This document shows, in pieces, positions 1 through 47,147 of a stretch of DNA of 64,000 nt. The position numbers were made by a program, and so were the translations under genes. The notes beneath the pieces were generated by a model that searched no databases, was not told the origin of the DNA, and saw only the letters and a program-made list of their open reading frames with translations. The stretch comes from a virus (lineage: Duplodnaviria > Heunggongvirae > Uroviricota > Caudoviricetes): IMG/VR virus record IMGVR_UViG_3300028591_000093, positions 16,765-80,764 of that record; one strand, 5' to 3'. Numbering within the stretch: position 1 is the first letter of the stretch; every line of letters starts with the position of its first letter.

Positions 1-99
1 CACTAGATAACCCATGCAAGTGGGTCATAGACCTAACTGTGCAGGTAGAACTTACATGTGTAAATGTAGCCATCTCTTTCTGTGCCCTCCTTCAAGACA

Positions 100-2023: not shown

Positions 2024-2659
2024 TTAAGGAGTGCAAGTCTTTACACCTCTGCTCTTGAAAGCAACAACATCTTGCTTCAATTTAGCAGCCAATTCCATGT
2101 AATGAAAATACTCATATTGTTTTGCAATAAATGTAGGAAAGGTCTCATTTCTACCAGTTGCAGCTCCTTTGATACCAACAACACTCTTCATTCTGTAGTA
2201 GTTCAACCAGAAGTAGTTATCACCAGTAATGTGATATTTACCAATGGTAAGACCATTCATACATCTATCTAATTCTCTATAACACAGGTCAGCAAACATT
2301 ACCGTTCCTGGGATAAGAGATGTATACTCCCCAGTTTCTTCATAAGTCCTAGCCATTTCAGTAAATGGCGTAGGGTCAAAGTCTAGACCTTGTGTAGCAC
2401 TAATAGGTCTATAACCAGTGAGTTCATAAGAAAGTTCTGGGTCAAAATACTCTATAGGGTCTCCTATATGTACATCCCAGTCATCCTCTTTCTCAACTTT
2501 CTTAGTTTCCTGAACAGTCTGCTATTCCTTTTTTATATCTTCCTGGGGGATGTCTAGAATAACAGCTCTTCTTTTCTCTCTTTTAGCATCAAGAGCAGCC
2601 GCCTCTTTAGACAACTGCTCTTTTAATGCTGTTTTTTCTTCAGGAGATAACTTACCCAT
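2024..2659 (-). CDS. terL: terminase large subunit, N-terminal ATPase fragment with a P-loop-like GIKGAATGR; one in-frame TAG at 2522-2524 read as sense
   Basis: Frame is open from the ATG at 2659 to the TAA at 2024-2026 apart from a single TAG. No alternative start lies downstream of the TAG before M at 2356. Distance to the P-loop (about 170 aa) matches T4 gp17. The ORF track shows only the post-TAG piece 2024-2356. TAATG overlap with the upstream gene. Confidence 0.5.
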
Positions 2660-3246
2660 TATCTCTTATCAAAGAATCCTGGAGTCCTACCCCCTCTTAA
2701 TCCAGTAGATTCTGATTGTTCAGTTTTAAACTTTTCTTCAGCTTCTCTCTTAGCATCAAAGAGTTTTGGTAATTTGATATAATCATCCATAATATCTTTA
2801 GATGTAGTGAGAAACTTACCAGTAACCTCATCTCTCTCAGAGAGGTCAAGATTTTTATATCTTGCTGTTAACTTATGAACTGCATCGTTCATTGCTGCTA
2901 ACAGAGGACCAAATAAAGAAGAACTATCTTGTAATTGGTTATATCTGTCAAATGCCGCTTTAAACAATGGGTCTTGTAACTCTTCTTTAGTAAGACCTGT
3001 CGAAGCTAATGCCATCTCATGTCTTTCTTGAGGAGTACTCTTATTACCTGGTGCTAACCAATCTATAGCAAGATATATGTATGTCAGTTCCTTATATGCC
3101 TTAAGTCTTTTCTTACCAGTAGGGTCTTCCTTACATTTATTTCTATCTACATCCCATAAATCTTTGAATTCCTTCACTAGTAAAATTTCAGGTTCATTAA
3201 GAGTTAAGGCATTGGACTTATTATCATATACAAAAAACTTAACCAT
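2659..3246 (-). CDS. hypothetical protein (position immediately upstream of terL; possible small terminase subunit)
   Basis: 195-aa ORF, charged and helical. Gene order only; no motif recognised. Confidence 0.35.
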   Translation of the reverse strand: MVKFFVYDNKSNALTLNEPEILLVKEFKDLWDVDRNKCKEDPTGKKRLKAYKELTYIYLAIDWLAPGNKSTPQERHEMALASTGLTKEELQDPLFKAAFDRYNQLQDSSSLFGPLLAAMNDAVHKLTARYKNLDLSERDEVTGKFLTTSKDIMDDYIKLPKLFDAKREAEEKFKTEQSESTGLRGGRTPGFFDKR

Positions 3247-3257
3247 ATAGTAAACAA

Positions 3258-3668
3258 TTAGTGTAAGACAGGCAGGCCAGTACAGCTATCTACTTCAATA
3301 AGCCTGCCTCCAACTCTCTTGAGCATACAAGGACATTTCTTCTTAGGTTTACCACCTTGTCTAAGTTTCTTATAATACTCAAGTTTCATACCACACTTAG
3401 CTTTTGCAACGGCTTGCTGTACAATCTGTACAATTTGTGCAGTAATGTCTTTAGGTTGTGCACCTTCAGCAGCTAACTTACTAACAGATTCTGCTGCTTC
3501 TTTTACACCGCCAGCTGTTTGAATAAAGGCTTGTGCAATCTCAGGAGCATCATTCTCAGAAAGACCACCATCAATCAGAATCTTAACAATTCCTTGCGCA
3601 AGTTCTTCCTCAGAAGGAGCTTGAGTTGCACCACCTTCTTTAAATTTCTGTCTATTAAAGTATTGCAT
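3258..3668 (-). CDS. hypothetical protein with Ala/Gln-rich N-terminus and C-terminal CG...CPC zinc-ribbon-like motif
   Basis: 136-aa ORF, TAA stop. Confidence 0.4.
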   Translation of the reverse strand: MQYFNRQKFKEGGATQAPSEEELAQGIVKILIDGGLSENDAPEIAQAFIQTAGGVKEAAESVSKLAAEGAQPKDITAQIVQIVQQAVAKAKCGMKLEYYKKLRQGGKPKKKCPCMLKRVGGRLIEVDSCTGLPVLH

Positions 3669-3680
3669 AGTTATAAAAAA

Positions 3681-3944
3681 TTAGTCTTCTCTTCCAGACT
3701 TAACAAGAACTAAATCCTTTGTGGAGAATAAATTCTCTTGGAAAGCTCCTTCAGAAGTAAACCAGAAACAACTGATTCCCTTCAAAGTAGAGATAGAATT
3801 ATCCTTCAATTTATAAAGATTCTTGTCAATCTTAGAAACAACCATAATTGGTCTATTAGGAATGTCCTGTCTCAATGTAACAACATCACCAGGAACAAAA
3901 TATACTTTCTCTTCCATATTATTATACATTAGGATTATTGTCAA
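3681..3944 (-). CDS. hypothetical protein (87 aa)
   Basis: ORF track. Its start overlaps the end of the groES-like gene. Confidence 0.35.
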   Translation of the reverse strand: MTIILMYNNMEEKVYFVPGDVVTLRQDIPNRPIMVVSKIDKNLYKLKDNSISTLKGISCFWFTSEGAFQENLFSTKDLVLVKSGRED

Positions 3945-4257
3945 CTAATAAGAGGTTTTGTTCTGCAACAACCATATATCCAGACTCAAAGAATACAGGT
4001 CTAGCTCCTCTCATATCAAATAAAACATTGTCACCTTTGTGGACAACTTCACATTTATTACCAACAGCAAGAACCTTGCCCCATTTAAAGGGTTGTTCCT
4101 TATAATCAAGCTGACCACTGTCAGGGTTCTCAAACTCACCACCTGTTATTTCAAATTCATCCTCAGCAGCTTTCTTCTCATAAGGATTGAATTCATAAGG
4201 GTCAACTAAAATGTTAGTGAACACTGGAATAAAATTTTCTGTCATATCATTAAGCAT
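3922..4257 (-). CDS. groS: GroES-like co-chaperonin (Cpn10) with expanded mobile loop
   Basis: IPVFTNILVDPYE then loop then WGKVLAVGNKCEVVHKGDNVLFD matches GroES IRPLHDRVIVKR...GEVLAVGNG...VKVGDIVIF. Lies directly upstream of the GroEL-like gene. Confidence 0.55.
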   Translation of the reverse strand: MLNDMTENFIPVFTNILVDPYEFNPYEKKAAEDEFEITGGEFENPDSGQLDYKEQPFKWGKVLAVGNKCEVVHKGDNVLFDMRGARPVFFESGYMVVAEQNLLLVDNNPNV

Positions 4258-5707
4258 TAAGAATTAAACAAGAGCATGTTAAAATAATAGAGGCTGTATT
4301 TACAGCATTCTCTAAAGAAGTCTTAACAACTTCATATGGGTCTATCACACCTTCATTATATAAGTCATTTACCCATTTTCTAGTTTTAAAGTTATAACCT
4401 TGCCAATCTTGTGGGCATGGAATAACTTGTTCATTAGGACCAAAACAGTTCTTATATAATATATAATAAGGAGTAGTCAATACTTCTCTCAAGTACTTCA
4501 ATTGACTACCTAAATTAGTAGAAGCATCAAAAAGTGCTGTTCCACCACCAGGAAGAACTCCTCCTCTTAAAGCGGCTCTAGTAGCACCTACAGCATCTTC
4601 TACTCTATCCAATCTTTCTTTAACTTCTATCTCAGAGTAACCACCTACATAAATAGTGGCAATGCCTGCTGTGAAGTTAGCAAGTCTCTTTCTCTGGAAT
4701 TCTAAGTCTCCTTCATCAAGATTACCTTTTTCTAAAAGTCCTTGAATTGCTGTTACTTTTTCAGATACAGCTTGTTCATTACTTTTATATCCTACAAAGG
4801 TACAAGTATCAGCAGTAGCTACAACTTTATCACAATAAAGTGTATCTCCAAGAATATCTCTAATATCAGAAAGCAGAATACTTCTCTGGATACCAAAGTT
4901 AGGAGCAACTACCATACAGGAGTCTAACTTATGTAAGTTATTTAAAAGATTTATTTTTATCTCAGAATCAAAATCTGGAGCAATAAGCAATAGAGCTTTT
5001 TTCTTTCTGAGAGCTTCATTAGCTACCTCAGCAATTTTGGTAATCTCACTAATCTTTGTATCTGAGATGTATATCATTACATTGTTAAGTACACAAGTGT
5101 TTTCAGCAGTATTTACAAATCTGGAATCAAAGTAACCATTGTCAAATTGAAAACCTTCAGAGAATTCAATACCATCTGAGTTAGTTTTAGATTTCTCAAA
5201 CTTAACAATTCCATTCTTGCCTACTTTCTTAAAAGCTTCAGCAACAAGTGCACCTATTTTAATATCGTTGTTTGCAGAAAGTGTAGCAACTTTAGTTAAG
5301 TCATCAAGAGTAATATCTCTTTTATGTTCTTTTAACCAATCTACAACTTTCTTGCAATCTTCTTGTAAATCTCTTTGTATCTCTATAGGATTTTCCTTAC
5401 TATTACAAAGACTATTTACAATCTTGTTAGAAAGAATGGTAGCAGTAGTGCTACCATCTCCAATATCATTAGAAGTTTTTCTTGAAATATCTCTAACTGC
5501 ATCTATACCCATTTGAACAAAAGGATTCTCATGAGTAACATAAGTTGCTACAGTACTACCATCTTTAGTAACATGTAAATGTCTGCCAAGCTTAATCATT
5601 ACATTCTTACCACTTGGACCATAAGTAGCAGCAACACAATTAGAAACTAAATTTACACCTTTAATTAAAGATTCTCTGCATTCTTCAGTAAATTGTACAT
5701 TTTCCAT
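4250..5707 (-). CDS. groL: GroEL-like chaperonin (Cpn60), shortened C-terminus
   Basis: 485 aa. ATYGPSGKNVMIKL...VTKDGSTVA...NDIGDGSTTATILS parallels GroEL TLGPKGRNVVL...ITKDGVSVA...NDAAGDGTTTATVLA. Confidence 0.75.
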   Translation of the reverse strand: MENVQFTEECRESLIKGVNLVSNCVAATYGPSGKNVMIKLGRHLHVTKDGSTVATYVTHENPFVQMGIDAVRDISRKTSNDIGDGSTTATILSNKIVNSLCNSKENPIEIQRDLQEDCKKVVDWLKEHKRDITLDDLTKVATLSANNDIKIGALVAEAFKKVGKNGIVKFEKSKTNSDGIEFSEGFQFDNGYFDSRFVNTAENTCVLNNVMIYISDTKISEITKIAEVANEALRKKKALLLIAPDFDSEIKINLLNNLHKLDSCMVVAPNFGIQRSILLSDIRDILGDTLYCDKVVATADTCTFVGYKSNEQAVSEKVTAIQGLLEKGNLDEGDLEFQRKRLANFTAGIATIYVGGYSEIEVKERLDRVEDAVGATRAALRGGVLPGGGTALFDASTNLGSQLKYLREVLTTPYYILYKNCFGPNEQVIPCPQDWQGYNFKTRKWVNDLYNEGVIDPYEVVKTSLENAVNTASIILTCSCLILNA

Positions 5708-5713
5708 AATTTA

Positions 5714-6004
5714 TTACCATTTATTAAGAGGACACTTCTTAGAAGCTACCCTCAATGCTGCCTCATGTGGGCAGCCACATCCATTTATAAAACCTATTTT
5801 GTATTCCATAGACAATTCTCCTGTCTTTGGATTATACCATTTCATTCTATCACATTTACCTCCACCTACTGTATCAGTATGTAGAGGACAAGCTAAACAA
5901 ATTGGTTTTCTTTTATCGACAAGCTCCTGTTCTTTTTTAAGAACTCTGTTTGTCCACCCTTCTGCAATTTGTTCAACCTATTCAAAAGATTCTATACCAA
6001 ACAT
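5714..6004 (-). CDS. small Cys-rich protein (6 Cys) with in-frame TAG at codon 9
   Basis: ATG at 6004, TAG at 5978-5980, then an 86-codon open frame to TAATAA at 5711-5716. Missed by the ORF track because of the TAG. Confidence 0.45.
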
Positions 6005-6005
6005 T

Positions 6006-6557
6006 TTATCTTCTTTTTATTGGTCCACCTATACCTATCCCAGCATGTATACCAGCTTCAGGACCATGACCAAAAGTTCCATTGTTTACATTTCCATGTC
6101 CACCATAACCAGCTGAAAAACCAACAAACCAAACAATAGTAACTTTCTTAGGTGGTAAAACTACAGTTTCTTTCTTTTCATAATAGTTATGTTTCAAGCC
6201 AACCTCTTCAATGTTAGCATTAAAACCACTATACTTAATGTTAATTTCTGTAGATGTTGAATCTGTAGAAATTGTATCTTTATACTCTTTATGTTCTATT
6301 GGTAAATCTTGTACATAGACTGTATCACCATTATAAACATAAAAAGTATCAATTCTATCTATATATTTTACTTTTGTCTTTTCAACAATTCTTTCTTGAG
6401 TAACAGTTACTGTATCATGTACAGGAATATACTCAACTTTTGTAGTAGGTTCAGAACCTCTACAATTAGACATCAAACATATACACAAGATTATATTGAT
6501 TATAAATGATGCAATAAAATACTTGTGTTTATTCAGATAAGTCATTATCTTGCTCAT
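6006..6557 (-). CDS. lipoprotein with Gly/His-rich C-terminus
   Basis: N-terminal signal peptide with lipobox LMSNC. Start may be the second ATG at 6545. Confidence 0.5.
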   Translation of the reverse strand: MSKIMTYLNKHKYFIASFIINIILCICLMSNCRGSEPTTKVEYIPVHDTVTVTQERIVEKTKVKYIDRIDTFYVYNGDTVYVQDLPIEHKEYKDTISTDSTSTEINIKYSGFNANIEEVGLKHNYYEKKETVVLPPKKVTIVWFVGFSAGYGGHGNVNNGTFGHGPEAGIHAGIGIGGPIKRR

Positions 6558-6978
6558 GTTTCTTTCTCATTTTATGTAAAGCATAAGCTCCACCTAACAA
6601 AAATAAACAGAAAGGAGAGCCAACTGGAAATGTCTTACTGTTATATTCTACAAGGGCTACTTGTATAGCAGCTAAGAGACTTGCTTCACTTCGATAAGTA
6701 TTTTGTAAATCTAAACCTCCATCATTAAGAACATGTGCTATGTTATAATCAATTAGAAGTCCTGCACCAACCCAGTAAGTAACAGTAAAAGAGGTGCCAT
6801 CATTGGCAACTACTGTAACTGAGTGGTATCCAGGAGATTTGAGAGCTTGAGACTATTGATAATTTATATTATAACCAATAGCCTCACTCTATTTAAATCC
6901 CATGTTCTTTTGTATCTGTTCATTGCTAACTGGCTCTATAAGTAAAAGAATAGATAATAGCAATACTTTTAAATTCAT
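6529..6978 (-). CDS. secreted or membrane protein with two in-frame TAG codons (6889-6891 and 6853-6855)
   Basis: ATG at 6978 with signal-like MNLKVLLLSILLLI. Continuous 149-codon frame to TAA at 6529-6531. ATGA overlap with the upstream small gene. Confidence 0.45.
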
Positions 6979-7088
6979 TCTGCTTCTTTAGTTAAATTTT
7001 CAGGTACTTTTCTACCAGTAAATATTAAACTATATACAATCATTGCAATGCATAATTGTTTAAGTAACCATTTCCAAAACTTTTTCAT
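6975..7088 (-). CDS. small single-TM membrane protein (37 aa)
   Basis: MKKFWKWLLKQLCIAMIVYSLIF. ATGA overlaps at both ends link it to its neighbours. Confidence 0.4.
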   Translation of the reverse strand: MKKFWKWLLKQLCIAMIVYSLIFTGRKVPENLTKEAE

Positions 7089-7897
7089 AACATAATTGGA
7101 TTACATTGTTCTAAATCCTTTTTTAACTTTAAATCATTTATATGAAACCTAATCAATTTCTCAACTGTATTTTTAAGATATTCTACAGGATAAATAGCTT
7201 TTGGTTTCATATCTCTTACATGTACAATCTCTAACTTATCTATAATTAAATCTGGGTCTAATTGTTGTAAACACCAAGCATAAATAGAAAGTTGGAGATT
7301 ATAATGTGTGCCATTTACATCAGGTAGAGTATTCAGTGGGTATCTCATGTTTTTAGTCTTCATCCTACCTGTATCAAATCTACCCTTAAAAGATATTTTA
7401 TCAACATCTTTCCAATCAATAATGGAAATGTGTTTTCCTTGTTTGACAACTAAATCAGCTACTCCAACAAGAATATAGTCACCTACATTAACTTCCATCT
7501 TAAACTCTGGAAATAGTCCTGATTCAGTTACCATAAAATTATCAATCTGACAAACTGGAAGTTTTGCAATACCAAAAGTATTTTGTAGAGCTGCAACATC
7601 TTTAGTAAACATTTTCTCTAAAGCTTCATGAGTAGCAAGACCAGCTGCTTTAGCTTCATCGTTCTTATCTTTCCACTCTTTATTTATCTCTTCTAAAGCT
7701 TTCTCATATTCTTCTTTACCAACATCAGCAATGTACATTGGGAGAATTTTCTTACTTCTTAATAAACCTGTCTTAATTTCTGCAAATCTATCAGGTTCCA
7801 TTAACTTCTCTAAAGCTTTATATCCAGCCCAGAAATCACCATCAAAACAGTGATACTGTTGGAGTAATACAGTTGTTGCAATTCTATTGTCTTCCAT
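7085..7897 (-). CDS. PD-(D/E)xK nuclease, RecB/Cas4-like exonuclease family
   Basis: GVADLVV...IIDWKDVDK gives the D...ExK core. QLSIYAW gives a RecB-family QxxxY motif. Confidence 0.5.
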   Translation of the reverse strand: MEDNRIATTVLLQQYHCFDGDFWAGYKALEKLMEPDRFAEIKTGLLRSKKILPMYIADVGKEEYEKALEEINKEWKDKNDEAKAAGLATHEALEKMFTKDVAALQNTFGIAKLPVCQIDNFMVTESGLFPEFKMEVNVGDYILVGVADLVVKQGKHISIIDWKDVDKISFKGRFDTGRMKTKNMRYPLNTLPDVNGTHYNLQLSIYAWCLQQLDPDLIIDKLEIVHVRDMKPKAIYPVEYLKNTVEKLIRFHINDLKLKKDLEQCNPIML

Positions 7898-7900
7898 TTA

Positions 7901-8506
7901 TCATTTAACATTTGAAAAATCAAGGAGGGTTGAAATCTGTTGAGCTTTCTTGCTCAAGTCACCAGTAATAAATGATTTAGCAACTTTATGCTCACTCATG
8001 AATCCAACAATAATAAAACCTATAGGAGTATGCACACCTTGAAGAGGACAGACTACTACAGATTTAAAGCCATCCTCACTAAGTTCTTTATACATACCAG
8101 GGAATACAGATTTTAAGTCTTTGATGTCATCATACCAGACAATACCTTCCTTATCAATCCTATTTATAAAATGAGGTATTGATGAAAGTAACATATTACT
8201 AAACTGATTAGTCAACTCATCAATACCTAGTTTGTTCTGTTGAATAGTAGGAGTCATATGTAAGAATTGTAAACCTGTCAGATTAGCACCACCATTGTGA
8301 TATTCAAACACAATAGCTCTGTCAGCATCTGTTCTGTCTACAAGGTCCTTCATAACTTCCTTAACAAGCAATACTTTTTCTTTTCTTGCTTTTAATGACT
8401 TGGCATGAGTATCTTCTTTAGCATACTCTTCATGCCTTTTTTCAAAGTAGGGTTTCCAACTTGTAATGTAGGTTACAATGGCAAATACTATAAAGAAAAG
8501 TATCAC
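7901..8506 (-). CDS. membrane-anchored hypothetical protein
   Basis: 201 aa with an N-terminal TM helix MILFFIVFAIVTYI. Confidence 0.4.
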   Translation of the reverse strand: MILFFIVFAIVTYITSWKPYFEKRHEEYAKEDTHAKSLKARKEKVLLVKEVMKDLVDRTDADRAIVFEYHNGGANLTGLQFLHMTPTIQQNKLGIDELTNQFSNMLLSSIPHFINRIDKEGIVWYDDIKDLKSVFPGMYKELSEDGFKSVVVCPLQGVHTPIGFIIVGFMSEHKVAKSFITGDLSKKAQQISTLLDFSNVK

Positions 8507-8576
8507 ACCTAGAATACCCCACTAATTAAAAAAATCTAACACTGTACTAATGTTCATCTTTGTTCTTATTTTCTAG

Positions 8577-8648
8577 AGCACCTTTCCAGAATCGAACTGA
8601 AATCATCGGGTTACAAAGCCGAGGTAATAACCATTATACTAAAAGTGC
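8577..8648 (-). tRNA. tRNA-Thr(TGT)
   Basis: Manual cloverleaf. Acceptor GCACTTT/AAGGTGC, T-loop TTCGATT, anticodon loop TTTGTAA. One C-C mismatch closes the anticodon stem. Confidence 0.65.
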
Positions 8649-8652
8649 AAAT

Positions 8653-8727
8653 GCTGGCAGTACTGGACTCGAACCAGTAATCCCCTGATTAACAGTCAGG
8701 TGCAGTAACCATTTTGCTAACTACCAG
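8653..8727 (-). tRNA. tRNA-Asn(GTT)
   Basis: Acceptor CTGGTAG/CTGCCAG, anticodon arm CCTGA-CTGTTAA-TCAGG, T-loop TTCGAGT. Confidence 0.75.
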
Positions 8728-8733
8728 TAAAAG

Positions 8734-8806
8734 TAGTCTGGGATGGAGTTGAACCACCGACCTTCATCTTATCAGGATGACAATCTAACCACTGATATAC
8801 CAGACC
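8734..8806 (-). tRNA. tRNA-Ile(GAT)
   Basis: Acceptor GGTCTGG/CCAGACT, anticodon arm TCATC-CTGATAA-GATGA, T-loop TTCAACT. Confidence 0.75.
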
Positions 8807-8812
8807 AAAAAG

Positions 8813-8886
<74 letters not shown>

Positions 8887-8893
8887 ATATAAG

Positions 8894-8967
8894 ACACACT
8901 GATGAGATTTGAACTCATGAATAGCAGTTTTGCAGACTGCCCCCTTAGACCACTTGGGTACAGTGTG
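8894..8967 (-). tRNA. tRNA-Cys(GCA)
   Basis: Acceptor CACACTG/CAGTGTG, anticodon arm GCAGT-CTGCAAA-ACTGC, T-loop TTCAAAT. Confidence 0.8.
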
Positions 8968-8971
8968 AGAG

Positions 8972-9066
8972 TGGGAAGAGAGGGACTTGAACCCCCCTAC
9001 TGCAAAGGCCAATACAACAATTTGTTAAAGCAGGTAAGTTTTACAGACTTGTGTTGTTATCTTCCC
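8972..9066 (-). tRNA. atypical 95-nt tRNA-like gene (long-arm type II or intron-containing; anticodon unresolved, possibly TAA)
   Basis: Perfect 7-bp acceptor GGGAAGA/TCTTCCC and canonical T-arm GGGGG-TTCAAGT-CCCTC. D-loop lacks GG. There are 46 nt between the D-arm and T-arm that do not fold into a standard anticodon arm. Confidence 0.4.
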
Positions 9067-9071
9067 AATTG

Positions 9072-9144
9072 TCTAGATAGAGAGGCTCGAACTCCCGCTC
9101 ACTTGCTCCCAAAGCAAGAATGTTACCCATTACACCATATCTAG
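9072..9144 (-). tRNA. tRNA-Pro(TGG)
   Basis: Acceptor CTAGATA/TATCTAG, anticodon arm CTTGC-TTTGGGA-GCAAG, T-loop TTCGAGC. Confidence 0.75.
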
Positions 9145-9149
9145 AGTTG

Positions 9150-9221
9150 TGCAGCAGAAAGGATTCAAACCCTCCACTCCTGGTTGGAGGCCAGGTATGT
9201 TGTCACTAACACCACTACTGC
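9150..9221 (-). tRNA. tRNA-Gly(TCC)
   Basis: Acceptor GCAGTAG/CTGCTGC with one GU pair, anticodon arm CCTGG-CCTCCAA-CCAGG, T-loop TTTGAAT. Confidence 0.7.
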
Positions 9222-9226
9222 ATTTG

Positions 9227-9298
9227 TGCAGATAACCAGAATCGAACTGACATTTCCAGGCTGGCAGTCTGGAGCACTAACCGTTGTGCTATATCTGC
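9227..9298 (-). tRNA. tRNA-Gly(GCC)
   Basis: Perfect acceptor GCAGATA/TATCTGC, D-arm GCAC-AACGGTTA-GTGC, anticodon loop CTGCCAG, T-loop TTCGATT. Confidence 0.65.
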
Positions 9299-9302
9299 AT
9301 TG

Positions 9303-9374
9303 TGGAATCATAGGGAATCGAACCCTAATGAATAGCTTGCAAAGCTACCATAATAACCATTATATGATGACCCC
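9303..9374 (-). tRNA. tRNA-Ala(TGC)
   Basis: Acceptor GGGGTCA/TGATTCC with GU pairs, anticodon arm GTAGC-TTTGCAA-GCTAT, T-arm TAGGG-TTCGATT-CCCTA. Confidence 0.75.
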
Positions 9375-9378
9375 AAAG

Positions 9379-9451
9379 TATCCCCATCCTGATTTGAACA
9401 GGACCCTGCACCTTGAAAGAGTGCTGACCTAACCAGCTAGTCTATGAGGAC
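9379..9451 (-). tRNA. tRNA-Glu(TTC)
   Basis: Acceptor GTCCTCA/TGGGGAT, D-arm GACT-AGCTGGTTA-GGTC, anticodon arm GCACT-CTTTCAA-GGTGC, T-loop TTCAAAT. Confidence 0.8.
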
Positions 9452-9456
9452 ATAAG

Positions 9457-9528
9457 TTGCAGGGGCAAGAATCGAACTTGCGACCGTCAGCTTATGAAAC
9501 TGCTTAGCTACCACTGCTACACCCTGCA
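9457..9528 (-). tRNA. tRNA-Met(CAT); could be initiator, elongator or Ile2-type
   Basis: Acceptor TGCAGGG/CCCTGCA, D-arm TAGC-AGTGGTA-GCTA, anticodon loop TTCATAA, T-arm GCAAG-TTCGATT-CTTGC. Confidence 0.7.
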
Positions 9529-9690: not shown

Positions 9691-10569
9691 ATGAACATGG
9701 ACAACATCCAAGAACTAATGAAAGACCTGAAAACTCTTCCCATGTTCAAGACTGGTGGAGGGATACACATCAAGCCAGAAAATAAAGGGAAGTTTACAGA
9801 GACTATGAAAAGAACTGGCAAGACTGCTGAGGAACTTTCACATAGTAAAAATGAGTTGACTAGAAAGAGGGCACAATTTGCTCTTAATGCTAGAAAGTGG
9901 AAACATCAAGAAGGTGGTATACTTGGTAAAGTATATTATAAAAGTAGTGAGGTAAAGAAAGAAGAACCTTATAAATATTACAGACAGCCATTACCTGGAG
10001 AGGAGAATTATGAAGAACTTATAGAAGAAGCTCCTGAAGAGGTAGTAGCTGAAGTTGAGGAGAGACCTGTTACTAACCCCACTCCAACCTCACCTAAAAA
10101 AGAAACAAGCCTTTACTATAAAGCACCAAAGCCAACTAGTAAAGAGCAATGGGTAAAGGACATGTATACTGCTTATATAGCAGCAGGAGTAAGCCCATCA
10201 CTAGCTACAGTACTTATAGCACAAGATGCTACAGAGACAGCTTATGGAAGAAAAACAGTTGGTAATTACAATTATGGTAATATACATGCTGGTAAGAATT
10301 GGTCAGGAGCTGTAGCAGTAGCAAATGATAAAGATGCTAATGGCAATCCTTATAGTGCTAGATTTAGAAGTTATGCTAATCTTAACTCATACATTGCTGA
10401 CAAAGTAAGTCTACTTAACAGATTATATGACATTACTAACAGTGATACACCTGAAACAGTTAAAGCTAAACTTGAAGGAAATAACAGAAATGGATATAGA
10501 TATGCTGAGGCTGGACAAGCAAGTCTCTTAACAACAGCAGCAACTATTTCTAGAATGTTACAAGCATAA
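9691..10569 (+). CDS. peptidoglycan hydrolase with C-terminal glucosaminidase (mannosyl-glycoprotein endo-beta-N-acetylglucosaminidase) domain
   Basis: SLATVLIAQDATETAYGRK...GNYNYGNIHAGKNW...YSARFRSYANLNSYIADKVSLL fits the glucosaminidase family (GxxQAxLESxxG...NNxFGIK...FRxY). TAA stop. Confidence 0.6.
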   Translation: MNMDNIQELMKDLKTLPMFKTGGGIHIKPENKGKFTETMKRTGKTAEELSHSKNELTRKRAQFALNARKWKHQEGGILGKVYYKSSEVKKEEPYKYYRQPLPGEENYEELIEEAPEEVVAEVEERPVTNPTPTSPKKETSLYYKAPKPTSKEQWVKDMYTAYIAAGVSPSLATVLIAQDATETAYGRKTVGNYNYGNIHAGKNWSGAVAVANDKDANGNPYSARFRSYANLNSYIADKVSLLNRLYDITNSDTPETVKAKLEGNNRNGYRYAEAGQASLLTTAATISRMLQA

Positions 10570-10609
10570 AAAATACCCCAATAGGAACTCTCCTACTGGG
10601 GTATTTTCG
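10568..10609. terminator. bidirectional rho-independent terminator between convergent genes
   Basis: TACCCCAATAGGAACTCTCCTACTGGGGTA hairpin, flanked by a T-run on the plus strand and by an A-run (a T-run on the minus strand). Confidence 0.6.
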
Positions 10610-11806
10610 TTATACAGTATAAGTAATACTTACAATTTGGTCATCTGCTGTAAGTATTCTAGTTTCCAAAGAAGGTTTGAAGTTCTTATAATCTTCATGA
10701 AAATCCTCTTCTTTTACACTAAAGACCTTACTCTTAGTTTCAATATGGAACTTACTATAGTCAGCTTCATAAGGAAGAAAGATTATAGAAATAGCAACAG
10801 GTTCACCGTTTCTAAATACAACTCTTTCACAATCAACTGAACATAAGTTAATTCCTAACTTGTTTGGGAAGGTTTCTAACTTAATAGGAAATTCTTGATT
10901 AACAGTATCTTCTCTAATTGGAAGTTCAATGGATACTGTATCCTTACATTCTACACAAGGAGCTTCTTCCTTGTTTAAGTCTTCCATATCCTTAACAGGG
11001 ATAAGAGTGTATCCCTCTAATTCATTTCTGGTATCGCACAAGTAGTTACCTTCTACAATCTCTTTACCATCTACTTTGAAAGATGCTTCTACCTTTTCTT
11101 GAGAAGCTTGCATTTCAACATGTAAAGTCTTTACTTGTGGTTCTTTACCTTCTTTTACTACAACAACTTCATCAAATCCAACAGAAGTAATAACATTTCT
11201 CTTTGGCAAAACAAAGAAATCAATGCCAAAGAAATCAAGTACTTCTTGGAATTCTTCCATGTTCATGTTGTGCTTAATTTGAATACACTTAACATCTTCA
11301 TCTTTATTTACTACTGGAGCAGGTTCTGCTGGCAGTGTTTCTACACAAGGAGTAGTAGGCATGAACATTGCTTCTACCTCATCTGGAGTAAGATAATAGA
11401 TTTTATTATCTTTTAATACCAGAACATTACCTTCTACAAAACCAATTCCCTTGAAAGTCATATACAGACAGAAATTAGGTCTGAAGTAGTGATGTAAAAT
11501 CTGGATACTAAATTCTCCAGTAAATGCAGACTTACCATTGTGCAGTAAAATGTTTGCCTTACCTTCAACATCGAAAGGAATTATCTCATGTAGTTTCTTG
11601 CAGTAATCTTCAGCCTCTTCTGCACTAGTAAATACATTCTTAATAACAAGATGAGGACACCAATCAGGAATATACTTAATTGCATCATCACCATTTTCCA
11701 AATGAAAAGCGTCTGCTTCTCTCTTTGCTTCTTGCTCTCTTTCCTTTGAACTATTTTCAAGAGCTTGTGCAAAGGTTCTTAAAACTTCTTCAAAATTCAT
11801 ATTCAT
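10610..11806 (-). CDS. hypothetical protein (398 aa, acidic, Cys-containing)
   Basis: ORF track, TAA stop. No motif recognised. Confidence 0.45.
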   Translation of the reverse strand: MNMNFEEVLRTFAQALENSSKEREQEAKREADAFHLENGDDAIKYIPDWCPHLVIKNVFTSAEEAEDYCKKLHEIIPFDVEGKANILLHNGKSAFTGEFSIQILHHYFRPNFCLYMTFKGIGFVEGNVLVLKDNKIYYLTPDEVEAMFMPTTPCVETLPAEPAPVVNKDEDVKCIQIKHNMNMEEFQEVLDFFGIDFFVLPKRNVITSVGFDEVVVVKEGKEPQVKTLHVEMQASQEKVEASFKVDGKEIVEGNYLCDTRNELEGYTLIPVKDMEDLNKEEAPCVECKDTVSIELPIREDTVNQEFPIKLETFPNKLGINLCSVDCERVVFRNGEPVAISIIFLPYEADYSKFHIETKSKVFSVKEEDFHEDYKNFKPSLETRILTADDQIVSITYTV

Positions 11807-11830
11807 TTACATTTAATTGTTATTGAGTAA

Positions 11831-12226
11831 TTATATAGGAGTATAATATGGATACTTCTTTGGCTGTAAGATTTGTCCTGTTGCACTAACAGCACTATTT
11901 CCTATTTGCTCAGCAGTTTGAAGTGCATTGACACCAACATTACCTGCTGTTTGGATGCCATTTGCTGCAACAGACCCAGCTGCTTGCATTCCTGTATTAG
12001 CCAATTGTCCACCTGCTCTAATACCAGCATTTGCCACCTGAGCAGTTGTTTGGAGACCTGTACCTAATACATTAGCACCTACATCCAATGTAGTACCTAA
12101 AATAGAGCCAATTGCTTGACCACCTATCTTAAGGCCTTCTTTAATACCATTTCCAACCTTTTGCATGAAGTCCACAAAACCTCCTGCATCCAACTTCTTA
12201 GGTTGATAATATGTTAAATTACTCAT
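11831..12226 (-). CDS. Gly/Ala/Gln-rich low-complexity protein
   Basis: 131 aa with repeated G-x-Q-x-A-x-G units. TAA stop. Confidence 0.4.
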   Translation of the reverse strand: MSNLTYYQPKKLDAGGFVDFMQKVGNGIKEGLKIGGQAIGSILGTTLDVGANVLGTGLQTTAQVANAGIRAGGQLANTGMQAAGSVAANGIQTAGNVGVNALQTAEQIGNSAVSATGQILQPKKYPYYTPI

Positions 12227-12229
12227 ATC

Positions 12230-12787
12230 TTATAATGTGTTATCTTTAATAATGTTTTTAATAAGTTCTGCATGTAATTCTGCAACTCTTTGTCTACCTT
12301 CTTCAGACATTATGAACTTGCAGTCTTTTTCTGTATCCATAAAGAAATTCTCAGTTAAGATAGCAGGACATTTAGTATACTTAATTATTTGATAGTTAGC
12401 TTCTTTATGTCCCCTACACTTCCATTCTGGAAATCTTTTCTTGAACATATCTACCATTCTATTAGCAATGGTATCTGATTTTGTTTTACCAGTAGAAGTA
12501 AAGACTTCCCAGCCAGTACCTTTACCAGCATTAGCATGTACTGAAATAAGGAAGCAATCTTTTTCAACATTTGTTCTCCTACATCTCGCGTTTAAGGATA
12601 TATCAGAATCTTCTGGAACTAATATAGAATAAGGGATTTTATCCTTATCTAAAAGTCTAGCAATTCTCTTCACAATATCCCTAGTGAACTCCCATTCAAA
12701 TAACTAGGAGCCATCTTTCCAAACAGGACTTCTCTTTCCAGGAGTTTCCTTACCGTGTCCTGCATCAAGTAATACTTTCTTAATCAT
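12230..12787 (-). CDS. N-acetylmuramoyl-L-alanine amidase (Amidase_3 family) with in-frame TAG at 12704-12706
   Basis: MIKKVLLDAGHG...KDGS[TAG]LFEWEFTRDIVKRIARLL...FLISVHANAG. The His, Glu and SVHANA motifs of one Amidase_3 domain lie on both sides of the TAG. The ORF track only reports 12230-12673, starting at GTG. Confidence 0.65.
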
Positions 12788-12944
12788 TGTGGTCAATTGT
12801 AGATAAATAATTTAAAGAATCCTCAAAATTTAAGAACCATTGAGAGTCTGTTAACTCTTGTTTCTCAACAAGGATTACAAATACATCACACAGTAGAATC
12901 ACTGCTTTAGATAATTGTTTTAAAATCCATTCTTTCATAGTCAT
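12780..12944 (-). CDS. small hypothetical protein (54 aa)
   Basis: ATGA overlap with the upstream stop at 12941-12944. Its TAA overlaps the amidase ATG. Confidence 0.35.
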   Translation of the reverse strand: MTMKEWILKQLSKAVILLCDVFVILVEKQELTDSQWFLNFEDSLNYLSTIDHND

Positions 12945-13228
12945 TCTTCCTTACTTGGAACATATAAAGTACAAACACATTTGTCATGCAATCTATATTG
13001 CTCACATGGACAGTGCTTGTCTCCAGTATCTTCATGATGACAAGGACACTTACCATTACATCTATTGATGCCTCTGATGATTCCTTGCACTATCTTTTCA
13101 TTAGGGTTTAAAATAAAACCTTTCTTACATCCTTTCTTAACTGTTTCTAAATCAATAGAATGCTCTTGCATAACCTTTTCTTTTATCATGTTCTGCACCC
13201 TTATTTGCTCTTTCAAAAGTCTCTTCAA
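12941..13228 (-). CDS. Cys-rich protein with CPC...CPC...CxC arrangement resembling the ferredoxin-thioredoxin reductase catalytic subunit
   Basis: CNGKCPCHHEDTGDKHCPCEQYRLHDKCVCTLY. The true start may be an internal ATG (13189 or 13171), because the first 77 nt overlap the upstream gene. Confidence 0.4.
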   Translation of the reverse strand: MKRLLKEQIRVQNMIKEKVMQEHSIDLETVKKGCKKGFILNPNEKIVQGIIRGINRCNGKCPCHHEDTGDKHCPCEQYRLHDKCVCTLYVPSKEE

Positions 13229-13856
13229 AAAGTACTGTCAAATCATCAAGAGTAGTATCTGGGTTATTCCAAGCTGCTTTGAAATCAACAACAGGAAATA
13301 ATCTACCTTCTCTTTCCCTATCTCCATACATTTTGTCTGTATAAGCAGCAATTTCTTCATAAGACTTCTTTAGTCCTACATTATTAGGATATTTCTCATG
13401 TTCTGCTTTTGCTCTTTCTAAGAGTGCTTTTTGTTTGTTATAGCCATCCATATAAATGTCCTGACCATTGTTAATTACCCATAAGAAGTAATCTACTTCT
13501 GGGTATTTACCTGGCTTATTGTTTTTAAGCCATTCTTTATAGTGTCTAGTTCTATCTCCAAGCATTTGGAAAAGACCAGTAGCACTAGATGTAGTACTAG
13601 AAGCATTTGTGTCAAAGCTAGATTCTTGCATGATATTACCCATCATAGCAGCAGCATTTCTTCTGCTTACTCCTTTTTCCAATAAGTAATTCCACAAGTC
13701 TGCCATTAAATCATATTTAGCAGGAGAGAAGTATTGTTCATTACCAATTCCTTTTAAATAAGATTCAATATCTACCTTAGCTTTAAATGGGGTATTGTCT
13801 TTATTGACATTACCACCAACTTCTAATTTCCTAATTGGTGTATAAAATGTACTCAT
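13152..13856 (-). CDS. putative peptidoglycan hydrolase (phage tail-lysozyme-like GNxMQESSF motif)
   Basis: 234 aa. AAAMMGNIMQESSFDTNASS resembles the phage lysozyme and amidase-associated motif. Lies in the lysis gene block. Confidence 0.4.
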   Translation of the reverse strand: MSTFYTPIRKLEVGGNVNKDNTPFKAKVDIESYLKGIGNEQYFSPAKYDLMADLWNYLLEKGVSRRNAAAMMGNIMQESSFDTNASSTTSSATGLFQMLGDRTRHYKEWLKNNKPGKYPEVDYFLWVINNGQDIYMDGYNKQKALLERAKAEHEKYPNNVGLKKSYEEIAAYTDKMYGDREREGRLFPVVDFKAAWNNPDTTLDDLTVLFEETFERANKGAEHDKRKGYARAFY

Positions 13857-13872
13857 ATATTGTATAATTTAG

Positions 13873-13959
13873 TCGCCCCTGAGGGACTCGAACCCTCACT
13901 TCTTCCAACAGAAGGACATGGTTTTAGAGACCAGCACACTACCATTATGTTAAGGGGCA
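13873..13959 (-). tRNA. suppressor tRNA, anticodon CTA (reads UAG), type II with long variable arm, discriminator A
   Basis: Acceptor TGCCCCT/AGGGGCG, D-arm ACAT-AATGGTA-GTGT, anticodon arm CTGGT-CTCTAAA-ACCAT, variable arm CTTCT-GTTGGA-AGAAG, T-arm GAGGG-TTCGAGT-CCCTC. Confidence 0.7.
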
Positions 13960-13986
13960 GAAAAATCCTCCAATAAGGAGGATGGA

Positions 13987-14157
13987 TTATTCACAAACTT
14001 TATCTGCAATTGCATATCCTGCTAAAGCACCTAAGCCAGCCGCTACAACTGTAAATAACCCTACATACCAGGTAATTGCAAATCCCACAAGTGCGAGGAT
14101 AACAGCTCCTGCACCACCAACCAGCTTTTGCCAGTTTTTCTTAAACCATTCTTTCAT
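13987..14157 (-). CDS. small two-TM membrane protein (holin-like position next to lysis genes)
   Basis: MKEWFKKNWQKLVGGAGAVILALVGFAITWYVGLFTVVAAGLGALAGYAIADKVCE. Replaces the spurious plus-strand ORF 13982-14167. Confidence 0.45.
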   Translation of the reverse strand: MKEWFKKNWQKLVGGAGAVILALVGFAITWYVGLFTVVAAGLGALAGYAIADKVCE

Positions 14158-14291
14158 AACTTCTTAACTTTAATTTATCATTCTTAATTTCTGTAAGAGC
14201 TTGCGCTATCTTGAAGTAAGCATCATCTCTTACCTTATCTCCTAGTAAGTGTTGATAACAGTATAGTATACAACTTTCTAGGAATTCTATT

Positions 14292-14447
14292 TCATTTAAC
14301 TGATTCATATTTATCTATCATTGTTGCCATTCCACTTAATCCTATAAAGAACCAAGTTGGAACCATTACTAAGCAAATAATTGCAATAATAAAAAATACT
14401 AAACCTGCATACCAGGCATAAGCTAAATCCTTAAAATACTTTCTCAT
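14292..14447 (-). CDS. small membrane protein (51 aa)
   Basis: MRKYFKDLAYAWYAGLVFFIIAIICLVMVPTWFFIGL. ATGA overlap with the stop of gene 14444-14674. Confidence 0.4.
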   Translation of the reverse strand: MRKYFKDLAYAWYAGLVFFIIAIICLVMVPTWFFIGLSGMATMIDKYESVK

Positions 14448-14674
14448 TTCTTTCTACTTGCTACATTTAAAATATAATCTATTGCTTCAGCTGCATAAGC
14501 AAACTTAACTCTTAATACAATATGAGTAAGAGAACTTACTATAATTGTACCATTAACATGGTTAAATACTACTTTAGGCCATCCTTTCTGAGAATATACC
14601 TGGCTGAACTCTTTATCTTCTCTAATATACCCAAACATTATGAGTAATTCCTTAAGATTATTTACATCATTCAT
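14444..14674 (-). CDS. hypothetical protein (76 aa)
   Basis: ORF track, TGA stop. Confidence 0.4.
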   Translation of the reverse strand: MNDVNNLKELLIMFGYIREDKEFSQVYSQKGWPKVVFNHVNGTIIVSSLTHIVLRVKFAYAAEAIDYILNVASRKK

Positions 14675-14793
14675 AACACATTAGTTTAATAATTATGATG
14701 CAAAATTACTATAAAATTAAGCAATAAAAAACCCAAACTATTAAAAATAAATTTAGCCCCCTCATTGTGTAATGAGAGAGCTAAATTTTTTGG

Positions 14794-15621
14794 TTATGCT
14801 CCACCTGAATGAGAACATCCTTCTGGAACAGATGAAGATAGTTGATTTATAGTATGGAATCCTGTACTATCATAAGTAAATACATGCCACCAAAGTTCAC
14901 CGTTTTCTACAGTTGGTGGGTATATTGTTTGAGATGTACCATCATCAAAAGTTACCTCAACTCTAGCCCCCATACTTGAAATTGTGCCACTTCCTGTATA
15001 GAAATGTACATAAAATTTAGTAGTATATTTATTATTATTCCAGGTACCAGACCTTAAATATAAAGAAGATGTTTCTACTGCATAATCTACATCAGCATGT
15101 TTATAGTGAGTTCCAGCTCCTGGTAAATCATCAGTATCCAATGAAATATATGCATTGTCTCCTACTGGCAATTCAGTATTAACATGTCCGTCTGCATAGT
15201 TAGCATATGCCGTTTTTGTATGAGGATTATCATCTTCATTCCACACAATCAAATGACTATCAAGGTCTTGACTTGTAGGAGGTTTGCCATCACACCATTT
15301 TAGAATAGCACTCATGAATGCTCCAATAAGATAAATAATCACATCACCATCTATACTTGGTACTGTAAATGTAGTATTTTTATATTGATTTTGTTCATCA
15401 ACAAATGTAACAGTTCTACCAATCCAGATGCTGTCAAATATAATTTTAGAAAAGTCAGAACTGTATGAAATTCCATCTGTTGTAATTCCTTGTGAATTAG
15501 ATAGAACTGTTGCACCACCATATGTTATAGAAGTATAATGATTATCGTGAGCATTACCAGTATTCTGTTCTATAAATTGTATTTTACAACCTTTAGGATA
15601 TAAATATTTCTTACAAATCAT
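14794..15621 (-). CDS. tail fibre or receptor-binding-like protein (Ser/Thr/Gly/Tyr-rich, beta-rich)
   Basis: 275-aa ORF. Composition only. ATGA overlap with the upstream gene. Confidence 0.4.
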   Translation of the reverse strand: MICKKYLYPKGCKIQFIEQNTGNAHDNHYTSITYGGATVLSNSQGITTDGISYSSDFSKIIFDSIWIGRTVTFVDEQNQYKNTTFTVPSIDGDVIIYLIGAFMSAILKWCDGKPPTSQDLDSHLIVWNEDDNPHTKTAYANYADGHVNTELPVGDNAYISLDTDDLPGAGTHYKHADVDYAVETSSLYLRSGTWNNNKYTTKFYVHFYTGSGTISSMGARVEVTFDDGTSQTIYPPTVENGELWWHVFTYDSTGFHTINQLSSSVPEGCSHSGGA

Positions 15622-16511
15622 TTTAATATTGGGTTAAAAAACAAACTCCTGGAGTTACCAGTTCTTAATGTGAAATCATTTAACTAAGGTACTACAAGTT
15701 GCCAAGTATTTGAAGAAATTTTGGTAGCTGTCACAACTGTGGTTTTAGTTTCTGATATTGATATTGGGTCAGTAAGTAATTCAAAACCATCAAGAATATC
15801 AGTATCTGAGGTTGTTATAGTAATAGTATCTCCATAACCAAATCCTGTATAACTAGCATAACCTGTCTGGGAATCATAAAGGGGTTGAGAAGATTCTCCT
15901 CCTGAAGAAAAACTTGTAGACCAAGTTTGACTCCAAGCTTGCCCATCTAATCCTATAGCTGAAAATGTAAAAGAATAAGATGTCTTATCTGTCTATAAAC
16001 TACCTTTTAGCCTAGACCTGTTATATCTAAATATACCATCTCTAGTTAACTTGAAAGTATTAACAACATCAGAAGAACCAATAGTACCAGAACTGTTTGT
16101 TTGAGATGAATATGTGTAACCAGATTTAGCGACATAAGAAAAAGTAAAGTAATCTCCTGTGTGTACAATAGTAGAGTTATTAGTAGCTACATCTCTACCA
16201 TTAACTCTAATTGTATAACTGGTTAAAGCTTTTAAACAACCAGCAGCAGAGAGATTATACCTATATAATTGATTAAATGTTGCATAATAATCTTGGTCTT
16301 GTGTTACTATTGCAATAGCTGGATTCCAACCATTGAAGGTATAATCATATATGGAATCACTAGCTTTCGTTGGTGTAGCACCTTTATAAGAAGGTGTTTG
16401 ACCACTTACATAAGTTTCTGTATCTAAAAGTGAGTCACCACCTGACAAGGATTGTAACCATCTAATTGTATATTCTGCAAAATTATATAAATATTTCTTT
16501 GAATATAACAT
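15618..16511 (-). CDS. tail fibre-like protein with two in-frame TAG codons (15993-15995 and 15684-15686)
   Basis: Frame is continuous for 297 codons from the ATG at 16511 to the TGA at 15618-15620. The ORF track truncates at the first TAG (15993-16511). Ser/Thr-rich composition is maintained across both TAGs. Confidence 0.55.
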
Positions 16512-16837
16512 TACTTTGTGGGTTTAATAGTTATTTCTGGAAGTACATTACCAGGAATACCAATATGTTTAAGTTTACTTAATTTATTGAGTCTATCTTT
16601 ATGATAATTATAAGCTTCTGGATTCTTTTTCTTATAAAAAGAATATGCTGTTTCATTACCTAAATCAATGTTTACAAGGTCTGGTGTAATTACAGTAGAT
16701 TCTGAACCAAGAGAACTTGTAAATGTATAATTCTTATCTTTACCTGTATTTGTAAGAGATGTGATTTGATAGCTCATTTTATTAGGATTATTTGATAACC
16801 ATTGATATATAATAGAGTTTACATCATATGGTGCCAA
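16511..16837 (-). CDS. hypothetical structural protein (108 aa)
   Basis: ORF track. TAATG overlap with the downstream gene. Confidence 0.4.
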   Translation of the reverse strand: MAPYDVNSIIYQWLSNNPNKMSYQITSLTNTGKDKNYTFTSSLGSESTVITPDLVNIDLGNETAYSFYKKKNPEAYNYHKDRLNKLSKLKHIGIPGNVLPEITIKPTK

Positions 16838-16875
16838 ACCTCCTTGCTATAATTTATAAGGTTTATAATATGTCA

Positions 16876-17214
16876 TTATTTAAAAAGTTTAATTATTTTA
16901 CTCCACAAAGAAAGTTTATCTTCAGCATTTTTCCATGCTTGTCTAGCTTGATTTAACCACATTTCTTTAGAATCAAAATCCTAGTCTTCTTTAAATCCTC
17001 CCCATTCATATGGGTCAGCCATGTAAACTTTTGGTTCTGTTTTAGAACCTATTGCTGGCCAAGTTACTTTATGTGTTGTTCCTCTAACACTTTTAGGTGT
17101 AATTAAAACAGTAGTATCACTAGGTGTAGCAGATAATAATTGTATGTCTGCCTTGATTGTATCAGTGGTATTACTATTTGACTTAGTGTACCAAGTTTGT
17201 TTTGTTTTACTCAT
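16876..17214 (-). CDS. hypothetical protein with in-frame TAG at 16981-16983
   Basis: The ORF-track ORF 16981-17214 ends in TAG. The frame continues 34 codons to TAA at 16876-16878. Confidence 0.4.
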
Positions 17215-47130: not shown

Positions 47131-47147
47131 CTAAATTTAAAAACATT

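Follow-up and report, generated by a model that had tools for sequence, protein, structure and literature searches.

In a 64,000 nt stretch of a virus genome (hereafter the window; IMG/VR record IMGVR_UViG_3300028591_000093, record positions 16,765 to 80,764), genes for the terminase, lysis and structural proteins contain in-frame TAG codons, and the same stretch encodes a tRNA with the anticodon CUA. Codon alignments with related genomes indicate that in these genes TAG is a glutamine codon (genetic code 15) and that TAA and TGA terminate. The virus is a crAss-like phage, as judged from its large terminase subunit (TerL), which matches crAss-like terminases. We consider it very likely that code 15 operates in part of this genome and that the phage's own tRNA(CUA) decodes TAG as glutamine; a role of the recoding in timing is plausible.

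The window is composed of two divergent arms that join near position 18,000, as seen by GC skew over the 64 kb. The minus-strand arm (1 to ~17,900) carries the terminase, a chaperonin, a lysis cassette and tail-fibre-like genes, and the plus-strand arm carries RtcB, enzymes of NAD salvage, a Ro/VWA protein, an SPFH protein and numerous small genes. We call the minus arm late and the plus arm early on the basis of gene content and strand rather than of expression. Codons were compared one by one between the window together with L001, an IMG/VR contig that extends it identically past the left edge, and L002, L004, L007, L011 and L017 (75-98% identity). L002 is an IMG/VR relative that aligns to window positions 1-8829 and to ~8 kb past the left edge; L003-L005, L007, L011 and L017 are Logan / ENA contigs assembled from other sequencing runs. 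L012 and L013 are more distant relatives, whose lysozyme2 protein is 41% identical.

TAG is read as glutamine

We find 21 distinct sites at which TAG faces a sense codon in a well-aligned context. The partner is a Gln codon at 17 of them (9 CAG, 8 CAA), and GAG, AAG, TAT and AAT occur once each; counted by amino acid class, the 21 pairs include no Ser, no Leu and one Tyr. Measured against a Gln codon usage of 3.5%, the excess of Gln has a binomial P of 1e-21, and a log-likelihood built on the substitution frequencies of the same alignments gives -21 for Gln, -82 for His, which comes next, and -109 for Ser. Since two base changes separate CAA from TAG, the frequency of CAA among the partners is explicable only if the two codons are synonymous. 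Alignment of the amidase across its TAG, the check proposed in the original prediction, points the same way: 31 of 33 full-length homologues (57-98% identity) have Q at this position (DGSQLFEWEF) and two have R. Furthermore, TAG and CAG are exchanged between genomes that each carry the long-arm tRNA described below (the window versus L004, L011 and L017), indicating that this tRNA itself inserts Gln or something interchangeable with it.

That TAG is a sense codon in the late genes, as originally predicted, is borne out by domain span, open frames and the sense codons of relatives. TAA and TGA together make up 8.5% per codon in the non-coding frames of the late arm. Against this background most TAGs are followed by 87-165 further open codons (P from 4e-7 to 4e-4), for instance 87 codons in the gene of the Cys-rich protein (P=4e-4) and 124 codons past the first TAG of the tail-fibre-like gene (P=2e-5); the weakest frame is that past 16981-16983, with 34 codons (P=0.05). 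In the amidase gene, Pfam Amidase_3 aligns end-to-end (1-174 of 174) over the TAG. Re-prediction of genes with TAG as sense, another check suggested at the outset, increases the coverage of the late arm by open reading frames (ORFs) of at least 100 aa from 71% to 86%, compared with only 76% when TGA is taken as sense; for TAA this coding-density test is uninformative, since in an AT-rich genome reading TAA as sense inflates everything. Public gene calls on the contigs of the relatives already read TAG through, with Q at the TAG positions.

Could the TAGs be true stops all the same, in pseudogenes, in separate short genes, or through assembly or sequencing errors? Standard-code ORF calls do yield separate fragments here. 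However, the TAGs of the window recur in L003, L004, L005, L007, L011 and L017, and codons shared by at least six independent assemblies are not sequencing errors. In addition, conservation of the protein sequence extends to either side of the TAGs, several of the sites are occupied by sense codons in relatives, one Pfam domain spans the amidase TAG, and at most sites open frames of this length would arise by chance only with the probabilities given above. We therefore regard true stops as extremely unlikely.

The suppressor tRNA

The CUA tRNA was expected in the same block as the late genes and with a long variable arm, and both features are found (Table 1): it is 88 nt long, and its 19-nt variable region folds with a 5-bp stem. 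The acceptor/T branch is the canonical 7/5, the anticodon loop reads CU-CUA-AA, position 73 is A, the first acceptor pair is U1.G72 (U1/U72 in L007 and L011) and an encoded CCA is absent. The gene is identical in L003, L004, L005 and L017. In L007 and L011 the anticodon, T and D stems have changed in both partners of a pair, so that the stems are preserved, which indicates that the tRNA is under selection. The extra arm of L007 is identical to that of the window; in L011 its 3' strand is changed and a 5-bp stem is still predicted (CCUUC/GGAGG). Across the clade the variable region measures 19-22 nt and has a 5-bp stem with a 4-6-nt loop (window, L007, L011 and L017). L012 and L013 encode a 73-nt CUA tRNA of the same U1.G72/A73 acceptor type with a short variable loop, which makes the extra arm a clade-specific insertion. 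The long-arm suppressor is on record in the window and in contigs L003-L005, L007, L011 and L017. A search for its exact pattern in IMG/VR and JGI metagenomes, and blastn in the phage collection, returned only a chance-level Rhodococcus phage tRNA-Leu.

Which tRNA gave rise to the suppressor? Over its first 23 bases it shares 20 with the ordinary tRNA-Gln(UUG) encoded by the phage (TGCCCcTTAaCATAaTGGTAGTG); A73 is common to the two, as is U1, which in bacterial tRNA-Gln is part of a weak 1:72 pair. A variable loop of 4-5 nt, usual in class I tRNAs such as tRNA-Gln, is what the suppressor lacks. When the anticodon arm is left aside, tRNA-Gln comes first among the 22 tRNAs of the phage by a narrow margin (40 matches versus 38 for Trp). 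Over the full length the closest is phage tRNA-Trp, owing to the anticodon arm; the L007 anticodon arm differs from that of phage tRNA-Trp(CCA) essentially by C35 to U only. In classical genetics both origins lead to Gln: supE is tRNA-Gln with a CUA anticodon, su7 is tRNA-Trp with a CUA anticodon that is charged by GlnRS and inserts Gln, and U35 in the CUA anticodon directs GlnRS.

The original prediction had held the suppressor not to be of the Gln type and implied, from the long variable arm, charging as a class II tRNA, so that TAG would mean Ser, Leu or Tyr. The 19-nt variable region with its 5-bp stem indeed has the shape of bacterial Ser, Leu and Tyr tRNAs, A73 occurs in Leu and Tyr tRNAs, and one TAG/TAT and one TAG/TCG pair are seen. 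The codon evidence contradicts this reading: TAT is the only class II codon among the 21 partners, 17 of which are Gln, the log-likelihood for Ser is much the lower, and the amidase site is a near-invariant Q. Bacterial TyrRS uses a G1-C72 pair, which the suppressor does not have. Of the Leu determinants (A73 together with D-loop geometry), the suppressor does have A73. G73, which in combination with a long arm is the SerRS determinant (PMC7609411), is missing, and distant relatives combine a matching acceptor stem with a short loop. We thus consider class II charging very unlikely; by the codon evidence, the extra arm is a Ser/Leu/Tyr-class shape acquired with no change of codon meaning.

Only one element here may be new, the extra variable arm of a Gln suppressor; full-text literature searches, limited in extent, gave no report of a long-variable-arm suppressor in phages. 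Given that the arm was kept in sequence or in pairing while other stems changed, and that it is absent from distant relatives, it may be an innovation favoured by selection and not just an insertion that is tolerated, a reading that we hold to be unlikely. The arm could set the suppressor apart from host tRNA-Gln, for example letting it escape a tRNA-targeting defence or a modification enzyme; it could recruit a phage factor, or it could tune the competition with release factor 1. A selected arm would make this the first natural class-II-shaped tRNA that inserts glutamine. The suppressor is also a case in which to ask what tolerance GlnRS or GatCAB, EF-Tu and the ribosome have for an arm of the class II type, and whether such an arm benefits the phage.

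Distribution of TAG between the two arms

TAG accounts for 10 of the 154 Gln codons (6.5%) in late-arm genes, at least one being present in 9 of 21 genes, and for 1 of the 433 Gln codons in plus-arm genes, so that its frequency is ~30 times higher in the late arm (Fisher P=1e-5). Early genes had been predicted to lack TAG. This holds insofar as no plus-arm gene is split by a mid-gene TAG and no TAG-sense ORF fills any non-coding gap of this arm; it fails at one internal TAG, 19561-19563, and at about five genes terminated by TAG (19085, 42031, 45370, 61209 and 61490), each of which is backed by a TAA or TGA 2 to 13 codons later (2, 2, 3, 9 and 13 codons over the set). The internal TAG lies in a conserved motif, MEESKQHV-Q-VP, with CAG at this position in L003 and L011 and CAA in L012 and L013. 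It is recent, since around the site L011 and the window are the same except for C/T in this codon.

Some TAGs are fixed over lineages of ~75-85% identity, namely amidase codon 28, terL codon 46, 5978-5980 and 16847-16849. Others turn over fast: despite 98% identity, the window and L004 disagree at 6853-6855 and at 3419, and between the window and L017 TAG and CAG are swapped at two sites. L002 is more heavily recoded, having TAG at ~12 sites where the window has CAG or CAA, as against 3 sites in the reverse direction, which points to a fast-changing number of recoded sites within the genus.

Does the recoding time late gene expression?

In the mechanism that we propose, the phage tRNA(CUA) would be the decoder, charged with Gln most likely by the glutamine pathway of the host, by analogy with supE and su7. 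The plus arm appears to be written to work under the standard code and could be translated by an uninfected-type ribosome pool; with the suppressor present, its TAG-terminated genes would gain only few residues. As the plus arm is compatible with the standard code, the TAG-bearing late proteins would await the suppressor and be completed only after it accumulates. That recoding gates or delays late and lytic proteins is a published model, which would plausibly apply here and fits the layout. The suppressor gene begins 5 nt past a terminator-like hairpin and heads the lysis cassette, being directly upstream of the lysozyme, small-protein and amidase genes; the amidase is recoded and the lysozyme is not. 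This placement just upstream of a recoded lysis cassette is known for crAss-like phages, and the layout here matches it.

Several observations weigh against this proposal. Gating is weakened by the low share of TAG among late-arm Gln codons (6.5%), by the 12 of 21 late-arm genes, lysozyme included, that are free of TAG, and by the TAG at codon 9 of a plus-arm gene of replication type. Neither a release factor nor an aminoacyl-tRNA synthetase was found among the ten largest plus-arm proteins of the window scanned against Pfam. With respect to the tRNA, the anticodon arm is nearer to tRNA-Trp than to tRNA-Gln, which makes the ancestry of the suppressor appear ambiguous, and the long variable arm is a SerRS recognition element, so that some mischarging may occur in a tRNA whose charging itself we infer.

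The same decoding as Gln is compatible with TAGs that are no timing switch. On this account CAG drifts neutrally to TAG wherever the suppressor is present, and the suppressor serves otherwise, for example to disturb host translation via read-through of host TAG stops. The quick turnover of TAG between close relatives (window and L004, window and L017), the young TAG in a plus-arm gene, the low share of TAG with most late-arm genes lacking it, and zeta crAss-like phages that keep suppressor tRNAs without any recoding (PMC12386605) all agree with neutral drift. It is at odds with the ~30-fold preference for late-arm Gln codons (P=1e-5), with the TAGs fixed across lineages of ~75-85% identity, and with the location of the tRNA at the head of the lysis cassette. 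We find neutral drift somewhat unlikely, and favour partial code 15 with a plausible timing role.

Catalogue of TAG-bearing genes

The six genes named in the original prediction do carry their TAGs, all present and in frame on the minus strand, and it missed three more, 7901-8557, 16511-16876 and plus-strand 19537-20289 (Table 1). Also as predicted, the late TAG-bearing genes end at TAA or TGA, frequently in TAATG or ATGA overlaps, and standard-code ORF calling cuts them short or misses them. Two details have changed: the amidase TAG, thought to follow EWEF, is located between GHG and EWEF (DGS-TAG-LFEWEF), and position 2024, given as the stop of the N-terminal terL fragment, falls within a group I intron.

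Table 1. Genes, tRNAs and intron of the window that bear on the reading of TAG
Feature	Position	Strand	Remarks
terL exon 2	100..1789	-	TAG-free in the window; tblastn 30-44% identity to crAss-like terminases
Group I intron in terL	1790..2042	-	~253 nt; splits codon after ...KSRG
terL exon 1	2043..2659	-	TAG 2522-2524 (codon 46); start overlaps the stop of the upstream gene (TAATG)
Small Cys-rich protein	5714..6004	-	TAG 5978-5980 (codon 9)
Signal-peptide protein	6529..6978	-	TAGs 6889-6891, 6853-6855
Membrane protein	7901..8557	-	TAG 8522-8524 (codon 12)
N-acetylmuramoyl-L-alanine amidase (lysis)	12230..12787	-	TAG 12704-12706 (codon 28)
Phage_lysozyme2 protein	13152..13856	-	First gene of the lysis cassette, directly downstream of the suppressor tRNA; TAG-free
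Amber-suppressor tRNA, anticodon CUA	13872..13959	-	ARAGORN; Rfam tRNA 51 bits; cloverleaf fold
Ser/Thr-rich repeat protein, tail-fibre-like	15618..16511	-	TAGs 15993-15995, 15684-15686
121-aa protein	16511..16876	-	TAG 16847-16849 (codon 10); start and stop overlap both neighbours
112-aa protein	16876..17214	-	TAG 16981-16983 (codon 78)
DnaD_N/HTH_36-like gene, replication-type	19537..20289	+	TAG 19561-19563 (codon 9); exception to late-only use
Plus-arm gene ending at TAG	41161..42033	+	TAG 42031-42033, TAA two codons on; weak Pfam Pribosyltran match
tRNA-Gln(UUG), ordinary	47060..47131	+	72 nt, 4-nt variable loop; closest to the acceptor stem and D arm of the suppressor

The first exon of terL matches the PHROG terminase large subunit family. 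L002, L004 and L011 share its TAG, next to which an in-frame indel of two codons occurs, and further Gln codons of the gene are TAG in relatives: a CAA with first base 2119 in L002 and L011, and in exon 2 a CAA with first base 1008 in L002. The intron is matched by Rfam Intron_gpI over the full model (35.2 bits, E=2e-7; the gathering score of 50 is not reached). It is absent from L002, in which TerL is continuous (...AFKSRGVGASEIS...). The first base of L001 coincides with that of exon 2, 1789, and this suggests coexisting variants with and without the intron that break assemblies. When the C-terminal part of TerL was compared with the phage collection (tblastn), 123 records were found, nearly all from crAss-like or Bacteroidota phages, with 25-44% identity; the closest, MT835470.1, is only 44% identical and has zero tRNA genes. 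Past the left edge of the window, L001 contains three more TAGs, one in a 731-aa ORF and two in a 1245-aa protein. Two of the three are opposite Gln codons in L002 and the third is in a poorly aligned stretch. The 731-aa ORF follows terL, a position that, taken alone, suggests a portal protein.

In the Cys-rich protein gene the TAG and its flanking residues are conserved in L002, L004 and L011. The two TAGs of the signal-peptide protein are opposite CAA in L002 (6889-6891) and CAG in L004 (6853-6855), and L002 has five more TAGs in this gene, facing CAG, CAA, GAG, AAG and TAT. The TAG of the membrane protein is opposite CAA in L011 (VLDFFN-Q-WGILGV), and two CAG codons of the window in the same gene are TAG in L002 and L011. 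The amidase TAG is kept in L003, L004, L007 and L011. For the TAG-free lysozyme2, Pfam PF18013 is precomputed on the orthologues in L003-L005; a search of IMG/VR yielded no relatives of this protein or of the 10610-11806 protein.

In the tail-fibre-like gene, the TAG at 15684-15686 is opposite CAG in L017, the CAG at codon 215 of the window is TAG in L017, and the repeat pattern runs on past the TAG in an alignment with P0130, which bears PF18998. A cassette at 14794-16839 (-) encodes the two Ser/Thr-rich repeat proteins, of 275 aa and 297 aa; L003, L007 and L011 have in its place unrelated genes of similar size between flanks that are 77-98% identical. The cassette is likely a swapped host-range module. 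Further along, TAG 16847-16849 and the nine residues before it are conserved in L011. At 16981-16983 the orthologue in L011 runs on without a break (ACT, next to an indel of two codons), and L003 keeps the TAG.

A number of apparent extensions through TAG were rejected as spurious because there is a better start downstream, an overlap with a tRNA, or an overlap with a gene in a different frame. In the late arm these are 3945-3947, 8573-8575, 13090-13092 (where code-15 gene calls on L003 use a different frame), 17263-17265 and 17242-17244, and in the plus arm 20520, 33264, 41140, 46197-46230, 47067/47103, 48244/48256 and 54433-54679.

Other features of the window

A tmRNA gene at 34398-34772 (+; Rfam 93 bits) lies beside tRNA genes and upstream of RtcB, and its tag peptide is given by ARAGORN as ASRRRPVRLVA. 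A phage tmRNA may be relevant to ribosome rescue where the reading of stop codons is altered. The tRNA gene at 9150-9221 (-) is found by Rfam (43 bits) but not by ARAGORN, and has UCC (Gly) in the anticodon loop and an atypical D arm. Another tRNA-like gene, 21735-21805 (+; Rfam 53 bits), has an abnormal anticodon loop of 4-6 nt with a two-base 'anticodon' according to ARAGORN. It is probably decaying, as it is 96% conserved in L003 with its anticodon stem broken by a change. After the counterpart of this gene, L003 has 262 bp inserted, with a short direct repeat on the flanks.

The NAD-salvage genes form a contiguous block, 39552-44879 (+), in which a NAD synthase, a phosphoribosyltransferase-like protein and a NAPRTase are supported by Pfam, and nicotinamidase-like, Nudix-like and NadD-like genes were recognized by eye. 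The block may counter NAD-depleting host defences. RtcB RNA ligase (35308-36519, +) and a Ro/TROVE-plus-VWA protein (61996-63612, +) are located amid tRNA genes, and this pair suggests tRNA repair against host anticodon nucleases.

Comparison with known recoded phages and suppressor tRNAs

Genetic code 15 in crAss-like and other gut phages is reported by Ivanova 2014, among others. The phenomenon is by now well documented, and the phage described here adds one more lineage. Yutin et al. 2021 (PMC7886860) described how crAss-like phages read TAG as Gln, mostly in late genes and with suppressor tRNAs, and proteomics in Peters et al. 2022 (PMC9523058) confirmed the code-15 reading in other crAss-like phages. 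A survey of recoded phages by Borges et al. 2021/2022 (bioRxiv 10.1101/2021.08.26.457843) found only TAG-to-Gln and TGA-to-Trp where the code of the phage differs from that of its host, a rule to which the present phage keeps. Further recoded lineages have been presented elsewhere (PMC10607447, PMC12386605 and a 2026 preprint).

Like these code-15 phages, the phage has in-frame TAGs in terL and in lysis and structural genes where homologues have Gln, encodes its own tRNA(CUA), has a recoded amidase in the lysis cassette, and is recoded mainly in the late arm, the replication and auxiliary arm being compatible with the standard code. It differs from them in that recoding is light (6.5% of late-arm Gln codons), in that one plus-arm gene has a TAG, and in the long variable arm of its tRNA, whereas the Gln suppressors described so far have a short loop, as do the 73-nt tRNAs of L012 and L013. 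Within crAss-like phages, the zeta group is known for large genomes, many tRNAs, introns, and amber or opal suppression (PMC7886860, PMC12386605). The window resembles it in having 22 tRNA genes (21 by ARAGORN and one by Rfam only) and a tmRNA in 64 kb, a GC content of ~33%, an amber suppressor, a group I intron in a signature gene (terL), and TAG stops backed by a second stop; the likeness is one of features, and the best terL match in the phage collection is only the 44% to MT835470.1.

With supE and su7 the suppressor shares a CUA anticodon on a Gln- or Trp-like body, its acceptor stem and D arm being Gln-like and its anticodon arm Trp-like. Unlike them, it is a natural phage gene and not a laboratory mutant, and it has an extra arm, U1.G72 or U1/U72, and A73. 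A long variable arm together with an anticodon that is unusual for class II is also found in allo-tRNAs (PMC5389517) and in nematode V-arm tRNAs. Those are charged according to their class II body, with Ser or Leu, whereas the codon evidence here points to Gln; moreover, allo-tRNAs have 8/4 or 9/3 acceptor branches in contrast to the 7/5 branch of the phage tRNA.

For annotation, the consequence is direct: the standard code breaks or loses terL, the amidase, the tail-fibre-like protein and several small proteins, and table 15 suits the late arm. Set beside the systems above, the lineage also offers a clean set of TAG, CAG and CAA exchanges among its own members, which shows the speed at which recoded sites turn over.

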